A stretch of DNA of 64,000 bases from Escherichia coli (GCF_003018255.1 NZ_CP027440.1), one strand, 5' to 3'; counted from the first letter of the stretch, positions 28,396-64,000 are shown. Notes: generated from the sequence alone by a model not told the origin. Made by a program: numbers and translations.

Positions 28396-29439
28396 TTAAC
28401 GGGTGATCCACAACGTGGGCCAGGCGTCTGGCCCATGCCAGTTATCGCAGGTGGGTTCTGCGGCGTAACGCACCAGGCGAAAAAGCTGACCGTCAAAGCG
28501 CCAGCGCGCCTGAATGCCACAATCGCTTAATCCGCGCCCTTTCGCTAAGGTCACCAGTTCACGCGATTTTTCATCGAATGTTGCGTTCATCAGTTCCAGT
28601 TCATTCGTCTCCTGACCGCTGTTGAACGGCAAACGTAACCGAACCGGGCGCGAGGCCAGTGGCTTTTTACGCGACACAATCCATGCCAAATCAATGGTGT
28701 TATAGGCCCCTGCCTCACAGCTAATCATCATCAGCGCTTTATCATCGGTCAGCGCAGTGACATTCACCTCTCGACGCAATGGATCAAGCGAGCAGCGCAG
28801 ACCATTCATCCGCCAGTTTCCATAATCCAGCAAATCGTTGCGTTCTTCGAGTGAGAGTGGCGTCGGCGTTGGGTTAACCACCGCGACCTCTTTCAGCGCA
28901 GGCGCGGGCGGTACGCTGAGCGGCGGTTCATCCCCTTTCTTTATCCACGCGGTTTCACTGCCAACGCGCTTTTGCTGAGCATCTATAAACAACAACGCCG
29001 CTTTTAAGCCACTCAGAGAAATAGTCTGATTGCCGTCGCGTAAGGTGATCGCCCTCCCTTCCTGAATCATCTGCAAAAACGCGGTGATGGTTGCCGTATC
29101 ATCGGTTACTAATAACCATGGTGAAATCCGCCACTTGTCACCACTTAACGCCAACGGCTCACCATCTAACAGCAGCCGTGGCGCTATCTCCCCTTCAGAC
29201 GCATCCGGCGACTTCAACCCGCCGCGCTCAATACGTAAAACGGCATCGGTATGCGCCCCGGCGCTGCGGCTCAGGGTCATCACCAGTCCGTTATGATCGC
29301 CCGTATTACGCGCCACGCAGAAGTTTTGGTTATTACAGGTGACCTGCCAGTCGGAAAACGCCCGTTGCGCTGGTGCCGCCCACACCAAAGACGTCGGCAA
29401 CAAAGCGAAAAAAAAGAGAAGGAAAATGCGATAGCGCAT
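28396..29439 (-). CDS. ypfG: DUF1176 periplasmic protein YpfG
   Basis: 347-aa ORF with N-terminal signal peptide. Confidence 0.85.
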   Translation of the reverse strand: MRYRIFLLFFFALLPTSLVWAAPAQRAFSDWQVTCNNQNFCVARNTGDHNGLVMTLSRSAGAHTDAVLRIERGGLKSPDASEGEIAPRLLLDGEPLALSGDKWRISPWLLVTDDTATITAFLQMIQEGRAITLRDGNQTISLSGLKAALLFIDAQQKRVGSETAWIKKGDEPPLSVPPAPALKEVAVVNPTPTPLSLEERNDLLDYGNWRMNGLRCSLDPLRREVNVTALTDDKALMMISCEAGAYNTIDLAWIVSRKKPLASRPVRLRLPFNSGQETNELELMNATFDEKSRELVTLAKGRGLSDCGIQARWRFDGQLFRLVRYAAEPTCDNWHGPDAWPTLWITR

Positions 29440-43370: not shown

Positions 43371-43537
43371 AGATACCTCAACAATATATTCATTATAGAA
43401 ATGATCGTAGGTGGTTCAGAGGAAGATTACCACAGGAAAGCGGGATGAAATGGCGGAGGAATGAGCGTTCAATACTCATCTTATGAGAGCGGTTGTCTTG
43501 CCGTGCCAGCTGCACGGCAAGATGATGAACAGAAAAA

Positions 43538-55870: not shown

Positions 55871-59483
<3,613 letters not shown>

Positions 59484-59488
59484 TGCTT

Positions 59489-59518
59489 TGCGGGCCGACG
59501 AGAAATGTCGGCCCGCAT
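59489..59518. terminator. bidirectional intrinsic terminator between ppx and pdeF
   Basis: Stem gcgggccgac-n9-gtcggcccgc in the convergent spacer. Confidence 0.65.
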
Positions 59519-59521
59519 TAT

Positions 59522-61765
59522 TCAGGCACTTTCGCGAATGGGTTCGATTTCATTCAGCGTATCAATTAACGGTTGCGGCTTACCAATAAGATAACCCTGC
59601 ATATAATCGATCCCCAAAGAGAGCACCGCCTCGCGGATCTCTTCGTTTTCAACGTACTCTGCCACTACCCGCATTTTCTTCATTCGCGCCAGGTGGCAAA
59701 TCGACGCCACTATCTGATAATCCAGACTATTTGACACAATATTGCGGATAAAACTGCCGTCAATTTTAAGCAGATCGGCATTCACATTTTTAAGCCGCGC
59801 ATAGCTGGCGTAGCCGGTGCCGAAATCATCAATCGCAATCTGGCAGCCTAATTCCTGAAGATGCTGCAAGGTGATTTGCGCCTGCTTAACATTGGTCAGA
59901 GCATTACTTTCGGTGACTTCAAAAATAAGTTGCCACGCTTCAATCTGATATTTAGCCAGCAGCTGACTGACTTCAACAGGAAAACGAGCCTGACATACCG
60001 AGGTTGGCGACAGATTAATCGCAAAACGGTGAGCGGGCATCTTCGCTCTGTTTTCAGCCATAAATTGCAGCGTATGCTCAATGACCCACATGTCGATACT
60101 CGACGATAAACCAAATTCGTGCGCGACCGGTAAGAAGCTATCGGGGCTGATCAGTTCATCATTCTCACCTTTCATGCGCAGAAGAATTTCATGGTAGACA
60201 TCACCACGCATACCGGTAATCGGCTGGGCCATCAGGAAAAAATGGTTGTGTTCCAGCGCCCGCTGTAGCCGATTCATCATCGCGACTTTATCTTTCAATT
60301 CGCGTTGCAAATACATTGCTCCGCGACGCTGCATATTTTCCGGGGCGTTGGTCACGATAGAAAGTTCGGCCACTGTATTTAGCTCTCCCAGCAGCAGGTA
60401 GATATGATTCACTGGCGAGCGCACATAGCAGTAACTGACGCCAATCTGCGGTTGCATCGGCATTCCATCCCAAAAGAAACGAAATTGCTTGAGATGGCTA
60501 TCCAGTGCGGTAATGCGCTCCTGGTGCGATTCTGTATTCAGCCGCAGCGCGAGATCGTTACCCGAAAGCTGATAAACATCTTCACCCGGTTCCAGCAATG
60601 GTGACAGCCAGTGAGAAAGTTTTTGCTTGTATTGAATCCGCAGCATGATGCCATAATTCTTAACCAGCATTTCCATGCCAGGGATGCGTAAATAACAAAG
60701 CGCAGACCAGGGGGCATCACGTAACGCGCGATTCAGGGCGCGAACATTTGGCAGATGAACCACCGGGTCCACATACGCAAGCCGCTGAATGCGTCTGACT
60801 ACCGCTCGCTGACGGGTTGCCAGTACAGCCATATAATTGACAATAAAAGAGAATACCAGATAACTGGAGGAGGTTATGGTCAGCTGCGTGGTATAGCCAG
60901 GATAAATGGGAATGTAATTTTGATAGCTGTGGATGCTGATCATCAACACGACCGCCCAGAGCAATGAAATCAGCTTATAACCATAGCGCATCGCTCCCCA
61001 CATCATCAGGGGCAGCAATAATGACAAGGTGTAATTGGTGCTAAAAATCGTGCTTTTTTCATTTAACGGCATGCATAACAGCAATAGTAAAGCACCTAAT
61101 GCCAGTAGCCAGATTGCGAACTCTTTTTTGGTAACTTTGGCATCAACCTGCTGTTTTAATTGCGAATAATAGCTACGTAAATAAAACGGATTTCGCACCA
61201 CCCGAATGATGAAGTAGCACAGCGGGACACCAATCAGATTACCCACCAGCAAGGCCTGATAATTGATTAAGGTCCCGAGGTTAAAGGGCATGACGCCGAC
61301 CAGATTTTCTCTGCTCGCCAGTAATCCAACAAACGCAGCAAACTGGAAAAGTATCAGAAACAGCGTTGCAGGAAACACAATCTGCCAGAATAGTCGCTGG
61401 GAAATTAAACGGCTATCACCATGTGAAACGTTGTTACGCCGGGGAGTAAAAACCCTGTAACCGCCCCAACAGAGAATGATAATGATAATAAAATTAGCCG
61501 TTAATGAGAGCGTTTCGTAAAAACCCAGCTCTGCATATTTGCGGACAAAAATCCCTAAGGCGATCCCTGGCAATGCCGCCCAGCTGAAAAACATCATCAT
61601 GCTGATCATCAGTGCCAGTGGCAGATAAAAGAGAAAAACTTCACCGGAAGAAATATGCGCGAAAGTATTAATGTGGGCGAAAATGGGCAAGATTAAAGAA
61701 GGCAGGAACAGCGGAAGCCCCCACCATTTATCACGTATTTTTATATAAGTTGCATTCAGTTTCAT
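59522..61765 (-). CDS. pdeF: c-di-GMP phosphodiesterase PdeF (MASE1 membrane sensor + degenerate GGDEF + EAL)
   Basis: 747-aa ORF; N-terminal polytopic domain; EAL motif region in C-terminal part. Confidence 0.9.
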   Translation of the reverse strand: MKLNATYIKIRDKWWGLPLFLPSLILPIFAHINTFAHISSGEVFLFYLPLALMISMMMFFSWAALPGIALGIFVRKYAELGFYETLSLTANFIIIIILCWGGYRVFTPRRNNVSHGDSRLISQRLFWQIVFPATLFLILFQFAAFVGLLASRENLVGVMPFNLGTLINYQALLVGNLIGVPLCYFIIRVVRNPFYLRSYYSQLKQQVDAKVTKKEFAIWLLALGALLLLLCMPLNEKSTIFSTNYTLSLLLPLMMWGAMRYGYKLISLLWAVVLMISIHSYQNYIPIYPGYTTQLTITSSSYLVFSFIVNYMAVLATRQRAVVRRIQRLAYVDPVVHLPNVRALNRALRDAPWSALCYLRIPGMEMLVKNYGIMLRIQYKQKLSHWLSPLLEPGEDVYQLSGNDLALRLNTESHQERITALDSHLKQFRFFWDGMPMQPQIGVSYCYVRSPVNHIYLLLGELNTVAELSIVTNAPENMQRRGAMYLQRELKDKVAMMNRLQRALEHNHFFLMAQPITGMRGDVYHEILLRMKGENDELISPDSFLPVAHEFGLSSSIDMWVIEHTLQFMAENRAKMPAHRFAINLSPTSVCQARFPVEVSQLLAKYQIEAWQLIFEVTESNALTNVKQAQITLQHLQELGCQIAIDDFGTGYASYARLKNVNADLLKIDGSFIRNIVSNSLDYQIVASICHLARMKKMRVVAEYVENEEIREAVLSLGIDYMQGYLIGKPQPLIDTLNEIEPIRESA

Positions 61766-62116
61766 AGATGCTCAGCAGAATCCCCCACATCCTGAAGGAG
61801 GTGTATTCAGACAGGCATCCCACCTGACTTCGAATGATGATTATTCATCACTATAGAGAGCAATGATTCTAAGTGTCATATGAAAGTTCCAATTGATATA
61901 TATCAAACAAAATAACCCTGATTAATGAATTATTACGTTTATCATGTTAACTCATCATTATTACATAATCATTGTAAATAATTAAATTAACTTCCATAAC
62001 ATTAAAATATGTATCCACTGACGCTTTTTTACATAACGAAGAATTGACCATTTTGTCCTGTTGTGCCTTAATGTAAGTACCGTCCACGGCGTGGGACATA
62101 CTTCAAGGAACCTTTT

Positions 62117-62308
62117 GTGAGTCAGGCAACCAGTATGCGAAAACGACACCGATTTAACAGTCGCATGACCCGTATCGTACTGCTCATCAGCTTTATCTTC
62201 TTCTTTGGCCGTTTTATCTACTCGTCCGTCGGTGCCTGGCAGCACCATCAGAGCAAAAAAGAAGCTCAGCAATCCACACTCTCCGTCGAATCACCGGTAC
62301 AACGTTAG
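62117..62308 (+). CDS. yfgG: small membrane protein YfgG
   Basis: 63-aa ORF with one TM segment (IVLLISFIFFFGRFIY). Confidence 0.8.
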   Translation: MSQATSMRKRHRFNSRMTRIVLLISFIFFFGRFIYSSVGAWQHHQSKKEAQQSTLSVESPVQR

Positions 62309-62618
62309 CGGTTACCTTCTCCACTCTCACAGAACATAACGGCACCTCGCTGTCGGATGCTTTTGCTCTTTGGGATTATCAAAGCGGCAGATATTTTTTC
62401 ATCTTAAATTTTACGTTTTTGTCCTGACTGATGTTTATCCTGTTCGACTGCGAAATAAATACATCATTAATACATATGTTGTGATGATGTATTTTTATAA
62501 ATTATTTCCCGCATGAATTTTAATAAATTTAATCTATTCCTTTATACGCAATACATTTACTTTCCTCTTTTGATGATCTTAAATGTCTTATTTTTCGTAA
62601 TGTGTATAACAAGGAATA

Positions 62619-63137
62619 GTGATGAAATTTAAAAAATGTCTTCTGCCTGTGGCAATGTTAGCGTCATTCACTCTGGCAGGATGCCAGTCAAATGCTGATG
62701 ATCATGCCGCCGATGTTTATCAAACCGATCAACTGAATACCAAACAAGAAACTAAAACCGTTAATATTATTTCCATTCTTCCCGCAAAAGTTGCCGTAGA
62801 CAACGCCCAAAATAAACGGAACGCACAAGCCTTCGGCGCGCTTATTGGCGCTGTCGCTGGCGGTGTTATCGGCCACAACGTCGGGTCTGGCAGCAATTCC
62901 GGAACGACGGCAGGTGCAGTTGGCGGCGGAGCTGTAGGCGCGGCAGCGGGTTCTATGGTGAATGATAAAACCTTAGTGGAAGGTGTTTCTTTAACATATA
63001 AGGAAGGCACCAAAGTGTATACCTCCACCCAGGTGGGTAAAGAGTGCCAGTTTACGACAGGTTTAGCCGTTGTTATTACCACGACGTATAACGAAACACG
63101 TATTCAGCCAAATACCAAATGTCCTGAAAAGAGCTAA
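62619..63137 (+). CDS. yfgH: outer membrane lipoprotein YfgH (glycine-zipper)
   Basis: 172-aa ORF; lipobox LAGCQS; Gly-rich segment. Confidence 0.88.
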   Translation: MMKFKKCLLPVAMLASFTLAGCQSNADDHAADVYQTDQLNTKQETKTVNIISILPAKVAVDNAQNKRNAQAFGALIGAVAGGVIGHNVGSGSNSGTTAGAVGGGAVGAAAGSMVNDKTLVEGVSLTYKEGTKVYTSTQVGKECQFTTGLAVVITTTYNETRIQPNTKCPEKS

Positions 63138-63152
63138 TAATCAGGAGGAGTC

Positions 63153-63692
63153 ATGAAGAAAGTTTTTCTTTGCGCCATCTTAGCCTCCTTAAGCTATCCG
63201 GCTATCGCCTCATCATTGCAGGATCAACTCTCGGCTGTCGCAGAAGCGGAACAGCAAGGTAAAAATGAAGAGCAAAGGCAGCATGACGAATGGGTCGCGG
63301 AGCGCAACAGGGAAATCCAGCAAGAGAAGCAACGTCGCGCAAACGCCCAGGCCGCGGCTAATAAAAGAGCGGCAACGGCAGCGGCGAATAAGAAAGCTCG
63401 TCAGGATAAACTGGACGCCGAAGCCACTGCGGACAAAAAACGCGATCAAAGTTATGAAGATGAGCTACGCAGCTTAGAGATTCAGAAACAAAAACTGGCG
63501 CTGGCGAAAGAAGAAGCCCGCGTTAAGCGAGAAAACGAATTTATCGATCAGGAACTGAAGCACAAAGCTGCGCAAACCGATGTGGTGCAATCTGAAGCTG
63601 ACGCAAACAGGAATATGACTGAAGGCGGTCGCGATCTGATGAAAAGCGTGGGCAAAGCAGAAGAGAATAAATCAGATAGCTGGTTTAACTAA
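63153..63692 (+). CDS. yfgI: periplasmic/coiled-coil protein YfgI
   Basis: 179-aa ORF; signal peptide; charged coiled-coil-like body. Confidence 0.85.
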   Translation: MKKVFLCAILASLSYPAIASSLQDQLSAVAEAEQQGKNEEQRQHDEWVAERNREIQQEKQRRANAQAAANKRAATAAANKKARQDKLDAEATADKKRDQSYEDELRSLEIQKQKLALAKEEARVKRENEFIDQELKHKAAQTDVVQSEADANRNMTEGGRDLMKSVGKAEENKSDSWFN

Positions 63693-63730
63693 ACGATGTT
63701 AGTAACTTCAAACCTATAATTCTTTAGGAT

Positions 63731-63763
63731 AAAAAACCCTCTGTAGTAACAGAGGGTTTTGTT
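63731..63763. terminator. bidirectional intrinsic terminator between yfgI and guaA
   Basis: aaaaaaccctctgtagtaacagagggttttgtt: 8-bp stem with flanking A- and T-runs. Confidence 0.8.
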
Positions 63764-63784
63764 CATTCATAGTGCAGGGTCAAA

Positions 63785-64000
63785 TCATTCCCACTCAATA
63801 GTTGCTGGTGGCTTGCCGCTGATGTCATACACCACGCGGGAAATACCATTCACTTCATTGATAATGCGGTTGGAAACGCGACCGAGGAAATCGTACGGCA
63901 GATGTGCCCAGTGTGCGGTCATAAAGTCGATGGTTTCGACAGCACGCAGAGAGACAACCCAGTCATACTTACGACCATCGCCCATTACGCCAACGGAACG
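63785..64000 (-). CDS. guaA: GMP synthase, 3' partial (5' part lies beyond window end)
   Basis: ORF open to the window edge; C-terminus ...[11 protein letters not shown] matches GuaA. Confidence 0.9.

Follow-up and report, generated by a model that had tools for sequence, protein, structure and literature searches.

The region examined is a segment of the Escherichia coli chromosome with the gene order ppk-ppx-pdeF(yfgF)<>yfgG-yfgH-yfgI-guaA, contained in a window of 64 kb (the whole stretch of DNA that was analysed). Positions 61766-62618 extend exactly from the start of pdeF to the start of yfgH and comprise two spacers, one on either side of yfgG (Table 1). The coordinates of pdeF, yfgG and yfgH match the RefSeq annotation of both strain 104 and K-12 MG1655. 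The title of an earlier note on this DNA wrongly placed yfgG downstream of pdeF; the gene lies upstream and is divergent, as the text of that note itself says.

Table 1. Positions of genes, promoters and other sequence features at the pdeF-yfgI locus, counted from the first letter of the window.
Feature	Position	Strand	Description
pdeF (yfgF)	59522-61765	-	
Spacer 1	61766-62116		pdeF-yfgG
pdeF 5′ leader	61766..61858	-	~93 nt; two small conserved GGA-loop hairpins
HP2	~61803..61784	-	pdeF leader; CCUCC-UUCAGGAUGU-GGGGG
Leader block	61808-61826		CAGACAGGCATCCNACCTG
HP1	~61827..61813	-	pdeF leader; CAGG-UGGGAUG-CCUG
pdeF -10 hexamer	61871..61866	-	TAGAAT
FNR box	61893..61906		TTGATATATATCAA; perfect consensus, class II pdeF promoter
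Spacer-1 AT core	61907..62043		137 bp, 23% GC, TpA 3.4x background; FNR box to yfgG -35; part of H-NS-bound region
50-aa ORF WP_000017555.1	61947..62099	-	PGAP 'hypothetical protein', annotated in strain 104 and many genomes
yfgG promoter	62044..62072	+	TTGACC-17-CTTAAT; -35 62044-49, -10 62067-72, TG at -15/-14, C at -13
yfgG leader	62077..62116	+	TSS ~62080 (±3), GC hairpin 62083-62098, SD AAGGA, GTG start
yfgG	62117-62308	+	
Spacer 2	62309-62618		yfgG-yfgH
Candidate yfgG intrinsic terminator	62362..62400	+	~12 bp hairpin (62362-62391), then UAUUUUUUC; tail also given as UAUUUUUU
Spacer-2 AT-rich middle	62431..62550		fast-evolving
Palindrome	62457-62494		lineage-specific; within spacer-2 middle
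AT block	62514..62537	+	TGAATTTTAATAAATTTAATCTAT; upstream of predicted yfgH promoter
H-NS motif match	62520-62529		TTAATAAATT; within the AT block
Predicted yfgHI core promoter	62556-62584	+	TTTACT-17-TTAAAT; plus leader ~30 nt, SD AAGGAA, to 62618
yfgH	62619-63137	+	
yfgI	63153-63692	+	

In Escherichia, Citrobacter, Pseudocitrobacter and many metagenomic Enterobacteriaceae, pdeF, spacer 1 and yfgG remain syntenic and strongly constrained, with a fixed architecture. The neighbourhood of yfgHI differs in Kluyvera and Pantoea, some Citrobacter carry an additional MscS-like gene inserted in the yfgG-yfgH gap, and yfgHI has been reported as absent in S. Typhimurium and present in Typhi (PMC11619404). 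This patchy, mobile pattern would suit an origin by horizontal transfer, in which either all of the pdeF-yfgGHI block or only yfgHI and the DNA upstream of it is foreign and the spacers are xenogeneic leftovers that H-NS targets by default. The composition of the 4.2-kb block (45.1% GC vs 53.2% in the rest of the window), its almost exact match with an H-NS-enriched region and the evolution of the spacer-2 middle at a rate that equals or exceeds neutrality point the same way. Set against this are the constraint and conserved architecture of pdeF, spacer 1 and yfgG across the Enterobacteriaceae, and the presence of the locus in nearly all E. coli: a 1.4-kb query around 61766-62618 matched 5,424 of 5,426 complete genomes, always on the chromosome and never on a plasmid, with pdeF, yfgG, yfgH and a 'hypothetical protein' as the RefSeq genes at the matched loci. 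Moreover, mobile-element genes, tRNA and repeats were looked for at the borders of the pdeF-yfgI block and none was found. We consider a foreign origin of the spacers very unlikely.

Base composition and H-NS occupancy

The earlier note had described two AT-rich spacers of about 350 and 310 bp, and this is borne out by exact values of 351 bp at 34.5% GC for spacer 1 and 310 bp at 31.9% GC for spacer 2, compared with 52.6% for the whole window and 41.5% for all of its ORF-free sequence. The two lowest-GC 150-bp stretches of the 64 kb fall within spacer 1 (21.3% at 61865) and spacer 2 (22.0% at 62454); at 100 bp, spacer 1 ranks first (18% at 61891) and spacer 2 joint second (20% at 62453). Elsewhere in the window, comparable AT-richness is seen in just two intergenic regions, eutS-maeB (~22570) and ypfM-yffB (~37700). 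The window has 18 gaps of 80 bp or more that contain no ORF; the spacers are third and fourth lowest among them in GC, and four of the 18 lie below 35%. Both spacers occupy the extreme tail of the window's composition, yet they are not unique and belong to a common class.

While the spacers are strongly AT-rich overall, as had been claimed, they are not uniformly so. The AT sits in two cores, 61859-62043 (23-27% GC) and 62392-62618 (25% GC), and the remainder is of ordinary composition (46% in the pdeF leader, 45% across the yfgG promoter and leader at 62044-62116, 51% in the first 83 bp of spacer 2). TpA steps make up 11-13.5% of the cores, with the highest value in the spacer-1 core, against a background of ~4%. 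The cores are both AT-rich and TpA-rich, as is H-NS-bound DNA.

H-NS occupancy at this locus has been mapped in K-12 by ChIP-chip, with enriched regions at 2626274-2628408 under anaerobic and 2624400-2628963 under aerobic conditions (U00096.2; Myers et al. 2013, PMC3688515, Table S3). Conversion to window positions was anchored on the FNR site, with an uncertainty of a few bp, and places the anaerobic region at ~61080-63210 (2.1 kb, from the pdeF 5′ end through yfgH) and the aerobic region at ~59205-63770 (4.6 kb, the whole pdeF-yfgI block). Both fall in the 'extended' (>1 kb) class and both contain the two spacers; the aerobic one coincides almost exactly with the low-GC block. The experimental data all come from K-12 rather than the strain of the window, and the K-12 sequence is 98.6% identical in spacer 1 and 94.2% identical in spacer 2. 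Genomic SELEX further showed that H-NS and the RpoD holoenzyme both bind the yfgF/yfgG spacer (Shimada et al. 2014, PMC3946193). A genomic SELEX list for PgrR also includes the yfgF/yfgG spacer.

Removal of H-NS and StpA changes the behaviour of pdeF. The average FNR ChIP-chip peak at yfgF/yfgG rises from 0.35 in wild type to 1.68 in Δhns/ΔstpA, a significant, roughly five-fold increase (PMC3688515, Table S7), and expression of yfgF depends on O2 in Δhns/ΔstpA only (+O2/-O2 = 0.23; Table S11). In wild-type cells grown in glucose minimal medium, deletion of fnr left yfgF expression unchanged, with yfgF listed as an FNR-bound operon (Table S9). Table S6 of the same study gives the overlap of the FNR site with nucleoid-associated proteins (H-NS, IHF, Fis) as 'None', which sits awkwardly with the regions in Table S3. 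Because published H-NS occupancy, SELEX and the Δhns/ΔstpA effects agree, the suggestion of nucleoid-protein control made earlier from the DNA is supported. The data on the effect of H-NS concern pdeF alone, and the specific regulator of pdeF is FNR, not a nucleoid protein. The contrary expectation named in the earlier note, constitutive and unregulated expression, disagrees with what is known of all three genes: pdeF is activated by FNR, yfgG is bound by σS and expressed 2.2-fold more strongly under anaerobic conditions (PMC4447067, PMC3688515), and yfgH is induced by stress.

The low GC content might instead be generic promoter composition, with UP elements, -10 boxes and terminator tails supplying the AT, and H-NS occupancy incidental and without a regulatory role. 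Spacers of this kind are not rare in the window, given the GC content of its non-coding DNA and the four gaps below 35%. A σ70 consensus scan returned 4 sites, against 4.3 expected from shuffles; it missed the pdeF, yfgG and predicted yfgH promoters because its rule demands A at -10 position 2. The H-NS high-affinity motif (tCGATAAATT-like) is not enriched, with 75 matches in the window against 58 expected by chance. Spacer 1 holds no copy with two or fewer mismatches, spacer 2 holds two matches with two mismatches each, and the sole exact copy lies inside yfgI. Moreover, σ70 RNA polymerase shows high occupancy at the yfgG promoter within the H-NS region, and therefore 'silencing' is not uniform. 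Against an incidental role stand the significant changes in FNR occupancy and in O2 regulation of yfgF in Δhns/ΔstpA, the fact that no other part of the 64 kb is as extreme in AT content as the cores, and the 'extended' class of the H-NS regions. On balance, generic composition is an unlikely explanation. A sequence resembling an ArcA box was seen by eye in the spacer-1 core and was set aside, as the ArcA ChIP supplements contain no entry for yfgF, yfgG or yfgH.

The divergent pdeF-yfgG promoter region

To compare spacer 1 among relatives, ten related genome loci (retrieved with YfgH) and 88 metagenome loci (retrieved with the invariant leader block) were assembled. An FNR box together with a yfgG promoter was present in 72 of the retrieved loci, giving 73 sequences with the window; 34 representatives below 95% identity plus the window define the 35 lineages referred to below.

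The FNR box TTGATATATATCAA is the only exact match to TTGAT-N4-ATCAA in the 64-kb window. The pdeF promoter is known as a class II, FNR-activated promoter with the FNR box at -41.5 (PMC3718329), and the -10 hexamer located here equals the published one. From the published box position, the pdeF TSS was placed near 61858 on the minus strand. An FNR ChIP peak with a PatSer score of 16.08 is recorded at yfgF/yfgG (PMC3688515, Tables S5 and S6), and pdeF expression has been described as anaerobic and FNR-dependent (Lacey 2010, as cited in PMC3718329). Both FNR half-sites are kept in 35 of 35 lineages and the -10, written as ATT[CT]TA, is conserved across genera. The distance from the -10 to the centre of the FNR box is a constant 28 nt in 30 of the 35 lineages (those with a matching -10), which fits a box at -41.5. 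In a population evolved under gallium, an IS5 element inserted inside the pdeF -10, at the equivalent of ~61869, rose to a frequency of 0.5.

Downstream of this promoter, the pdeF leader contains two small hairpins that present GGA in their loops. The first alignment, of seven genome-derived sequences, shows no variation in the leader block CAGACAGGCATCCNACCTG; this pattern was also the one used to retrieve the metagenome loci, which therefore provide no test of its conservation. The HP1 and loop columns that adjoin the block are invariant in 30 of 30 leader variants. For HP2, the minimum free energy fold places GGA in the hairpin loop in 29 of 30 variants, with variation in the sequence of the C-rich/G-rich stem. 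RNAalifold applied to the 30 leaders recovered only the invariant HP1, with zero covariation, and missed HP2 because the alignment register shifts, so that support for HP2 comes from the folds of individual sequences. Fold energies of the leaders are modest (mean z = -1.0), and neither hairpin clearly overlaps the Shine-Dalgarno sequence. In an alternative structure, which would occlude the start codon, the invariant GGAUGC of HP1 could pair with the GCAUCU that immediately precedes the AUG.

The two divergent promoters are separated by the spacer-1 AT core. Spacer 1 as a whole is 89-96% identical, and the AT core 91-94% identical, to other Escherichia species, compared with 85% for pdeF coding DNA and 65-68% for its third-codon positions. 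Because these identities exceed those of both coding measures, the whole of spacer 1, including the AT core, is under constraint. Core length is 135-137 bp in 31 of the 35 lineages, where GC ranges from 20 to 35%; the other four have a 99-bp core with up to 48% GC. Over the same lineages the overall identity to the window falls to about 50%, and the conserved blocks of the core lie at ~61975-62007 and 62019-62035 (TGtAAATA…ATTA…ATAACAT and cTGAcGc.tTTTTACAT). The strong conservation of the core argues for sites of specific factors, beyond generic H-NS binding.

On the plus strand, the yfgG promoter combines TTGACC and a 17-nt spacing with an extended -10, TGcCTTAAT (62064-72), and the identical sequence had been predicted previously (Shimada et al., PMC3946193). 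Neither hexamer varies among the seven genome-derived sequences; the 35-lineage set was selected for TTGACC-N15-19-CTTAAT, so hexamer identity within it arises by construction. The promoter lies in a σS-RNAP ChIP-seq region with a TSS ~36 nt upstream of the GTG (PMC4447067), whose published coordinate, once converted, agrees with the position of the -10. It also carries an anaerobic σ70 ChIP-seq peak at 2627279 with a height of 11,933 (PMC3688515). The arms of the hairpin at the 5′ end of the yfgG transcript vary by genus yet remain complementary (GUCCAC/GUGGGAC, GCCCA/UGGGU, GCCC/GGGC), and the fold of the single leader sequence is unexceptional (z = +1.6). yfgG is needed for Ni/Co tolerance.

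A further reading of the spacers is that they are long because they hide an unannotated small protein or sRNA. PGAP does annotate a 50-aa ORF in many genomes, which overlaps the yfgG promoter, and a palindrome in spacer 2 folds well (z = -3.9). The ORF frame is broken by stops or indels in four of four non-Escherichia sequences, and its variable sites show no codon-position bias (12/10/9 at positions 1/2/3, against 3/4/61 in yfgH). The ORF was accordingly rejected as a gene and the PGAP call is spurious. The palindrome is lineage-specific, an Rfam scan of 59000-64000 gave no match in either spacer at E <= 1, and, of the 5,418 matching genomes, those whose records were listed have no feature annotated in spacer 2. 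A hidden gene is thus an extremely improbable explanation. The Rfam scan also returned one sub-threshold match, to the trpB motif, in the yfgI-guaA gap.

The yfgG-yfgH spacer

Spacer 2 contains a hairpin and tail that form a candidate terminator of yfgG (Table 1), as suggested by the predicted fold. The hairpin is the centroid structure, and its stem is kept and its loop variable within Escherichia; it is not conserved outside the genus. The stem is rich in G·U pairs, the z-score of the whole segment is 0, and a rule-based scan chose a weaker site at 62340-62355 instead.

The AT-rich middle of the spacer evolves rapidly. Identity is 60-74% between Escherichia species and 90% to K-12, compared with 80-91% at neighbouring third-codon positions, and over spacer 2 as a whole identity to the window is only 90-95% in 76% of E. 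coli genomes. The palindrome within this middle has perfect 11-bp arms in the window, is degraded in K-12 and is lost in other lineages; being lineage-specific, it was rejected as an operator or terminator. The AT block TGAATTTTAATAAATTTAATCTAT is nearly invariant in six Escherichia sequences and is not conserved outside Escherichia. Within it, TTAATAAATT agrees with the H-NS high-affinity motif at 8 of 10 positions. FlhDC SELEX produced a weak peak that maps to spacer 2.

Only the last ~70 bp of spacer 2 are conserved across genera, with 62556-62618 showing 93-100% identity within Escherichia. This segment contains TTTACT-17-TTAAAT, which its sequence and conservation suggest is the yfgHI promoter; no TSS was found for it, and the predicted start would lie near 62591 on the plus strand. 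The predicted promoter is kept in Kluyvera, where the context differs, and in Citrobacter, where it lies behind the inserted MscS-like gene. AT-rich DNA (24-32% GC) precedes yfgH even in Kluyvera and Pantoea. The part of Table S1 of PMC3688515 that was available lists no σ70 ChIP-seq peak in spacer 2, which fits the near-absence of YfgH in LB. yfgH is nearly silent in this medium and is strongly induced upon depletion of LpxC, LptD or BamA (bioRxiv 10.64898/2025.12.22.696046). Its product is a stress-induced outer-membrane stabiliser. SdiA controls the S. Typhi orthologues srgIL, and an E. coli fusion was SdiA-independent (PMC11619404). Sites for RcsB, CpxR, PhoP, σE and NarL, sought in spacer 2 and the core by visual comparison with the consensus sequences, gave weak partial matches only.

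Proposed regulatory model and related systems

Taken together, the spacers probably serve to regulate three transcription units (pdeF, yfgG and yfgHI) within an H-NS-coated, low-GC block. FNR binding, H-NS occupancy, the Δhns/ΔstpA effects, σ70 and σS at yfgG and stress induction of yfgH are known from published experiments; spacer composition, motif positions, the conservation pattern and the fixed spacing were observed in this analysis. In the proposed model, spacer 1 acts as a compact back-to-back promoter region. Its minus strand carries the class II FNR-activated pdeF promoter followed by the structured 93-nt leader. On its plus strand lies the strong promoter of yfgG, whose -35 is close to consensus and whose -10 is extended; both σ70 and σS use it. 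The TpA-rich AT core of fixed length separates the two divergent promoters and, together with flanking AT-rich coding DNA, would nucleate H-NS/StpA and allow it to spread. As shown by others in K-12, FNR occupancy is thereby lowered and pdeF stays almost off unless H-NS is displaced.

Spacer 2 would consist of the probable yfgG terminator, a diverging AT-rich stretch that may serve mainly as H-NS-binding filler, and a conserved AT-rich upstream element with the weak yfgHI core promoter. This promoter would be near-silent in standard medium, and under outer-membrane stress an activator would induce it. We infer that H-NS silences yfgHI, and any role of the pdeF leader hairpins is likewise a suggestion from the predicted structures.

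The pdeF promoter resembles the H-NS-dampened class II FNR promoters of Myers et al. 2013 (categories 5 and 7, e.g. hlyE). The resemblance covers the FNR box at -41.5, a weak -10, an H-NS-enriched AT-rich region, and the increase in both FNR occupancy and anaerobic induction upon deletion of hns and stpA. It differs from these in that its FNR site is a perfect consensus and is bound in wild type, such that H-NS lowers occupancy rather than masking the site fully, and in that a divergent promoter of high activity lies in the same spacer. Spacer 1 also resembles the H-NS-bound divergent 'type-A' spacers (Shimada et al. 2014), of which ypfM/yffB and upp/purM lie in the window: all are AT-rich and bind RpoD holoenzyme and H-NS in vitro. 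Unlike these, the yfgF/yfgG spacer has a core whose length (135-137 bp) and internal blocks are conserved across genera, beyond what generic H-NS binding needs.

A general class is formed by envelope genes that H-NS silences, that stress can induce and that are preceded by long AT-rich DNA. yfgHI shares with it a very low basal expression, AT-rich upstream DNA in an H-NS ChIP region and strong induction by envelope stress; it differs in having no assigned anti-silencing activator or stress regulon, whereas S. Typhi srgIL is SdiA-dependent.

Leaders bound by CsrA through two GGA-loop hairpins are found in glgC and in the GGDEF genes dgcT/ycdT and dgcZ/ydeH. The pdeF leader is similar, with two conserved GGA-loop hairpins ~25 nt apart near the start codon of a c-di-GMP gene, and differs in that HP2 has no obvious overlap with the Shine-Dalgarno sequence and in that yfgF/pdeF is absent from CsrA supplements. 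The available supplements of an E. coli CLIP-seq and RNA-seq study contained no entry for yfgF/pdeF, those available from a Salmonella study contained none for yfgF, pdeF or STM2503, and our literature search found no paper linking CsrA with pdeF. This absence may simply reflect low aerobic expression of pdeF. A broader reading, possible but doubtful, joins these observations: the spacer-1 core would be an architectural module that positions a factor or an H-NS bridge and co-regulates pdeF and yfgG, and the leader hairpins would make pdeF translation CsrA-dependent. If true, a CsrA-dependent pdeF leader would be a new post-transcriptional link from Csr to c-di-GMP signalling.

Much of the biology of the locus is already known, namely class II activation by FNR dampened by H-NS/StpA, the σ70/σS yfgG promoter and the stress-inducible yfgHI. 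What is new is that the AT core is conserved at a near-fixed length across Enterobacteriaceae and that the pdeF leader is structured. With FNR as a specific activator acting against an H-NS coating, the locus is a textbook-style example; the key experiments are published, and the result matters little beyond annotation. It is useful for annotation in that the AT-rich spacers are regulatory and the 50-aa PGAP ORF is not a real gene, and the conserved blocks and fixed spacing show where regulators of yfgG and yfgH could be sought. Direct repeats between the two spacers (D1-D9) are short, two-copy AT-rich matches and were treated as chance.

Length and conserved elements of the pdeF-yfgG spacer

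The AT-rich core separating the FNR box of the pdeF promoter from the -35 element of yfgG (61907-62043 in the window) is 135-137 bp long in 31 of 35 diverse lineages, comprising the window and representatives among the retrieved loci L005-L102. The same core measures 99 bp in the remaining four. A scan of the whole window for exact copies of the high-affinity H-NS motif TCGATAAATT found none in the AT-rich spacers on either side of yfgG.

Features of the pdeF-yfgI region
Feature	Coordinates	Strand	Remarks
pdeF 5′ leader	61766-61858	-	hairpins HP1 and HP2, both conserved and small, with GGA in the loop
Conserved blocks within the AT-rich core	~61975-62007 and 62019-62035
50-aa hypothetical protein WP_000017555.1	61947-62099	-	RefSeq/PGAP annotation; spans yfgG promoter
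Small GC hairpin	62083-62098		apparent start of yfgG mRNA; arms vary between genera, complementarity retained
H-NS high-affinity motif TCGATAAATT	63538-63547	-	only exact copy in window; within yfgI coding sequence

The annotated 50-aa protein is probably a spurious gene call, because its open reading frame is disrupted outside Escherichia and lacks codon-position bias. The GC hairpin of yfgG may act as a 5′-end stabiliser or, alternatively, may be a palindromic operator at +1.

The pdeF leader and promoter

Across 30 variants of the pdeF leader HP1 showed no sequence variation, while the stem of HP2 changed in sequence with complementarity maintained. This pair of hairpins presenting GGA loops resembles the architecture of CsrA sites. 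The sequence GCAUCU beside the pdeF AUG could serve as an alternative pairing partner for the invariant GGAUGC of the leader. Within the -10 element of pdeF, an IS5 insertion at ~61869 was reported from a gallium-resistance evolution experiment, where it reached a frequency of 0.5 in one population (PMC6928379).

Divergence and gene content around yfgG and yfgH

The block at 59522-63692 has a GC content of 45%, compared to 53% in the remainder of the 64 kb. Between Escherichia species, third-codon identity is only 65-68% for pdeF, whereas it reaches 78-91% for the adjacent yfgG, yfgH and yfgI; this disparity in coding sequence suggests that parts of the block have differing evolutionary histories or have undergone internal recombination. 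Whether strains of E. coli or different Escherichia species are compared, the middle of the yfgG-yfgH spacer (62431-62550) evolves faster than the synonymous sites around it. In this stretch the window has a minority allele, which includes a perfect palindrome with 11-bp arms (62457-62494).

A gene for a 292-aa MscS-like mechanosensitive channel has been inserted between yfgG and yfgH in two retrieved loci (L009, at 2842-3720, and L010; Citrobacter sp. / Enterobacteriaceae MGYG). In Kluyvera (L013) and Pantoea (L014) yfgHI is separate from pdeF/yfgG but is likewise preceded by AT-rich DNA.

The closest complete genome, strain 104 (L003/L004), showed three differences from the window (compared at 28396-29439 and 43371-43537). 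Unlike in the window, its DUF1176 gene is interrupted by IS66 and its yfgI is frameshifted; a vapBC toxin-antitoxin pair adjoins purC in strain 104 but is absent from the window.
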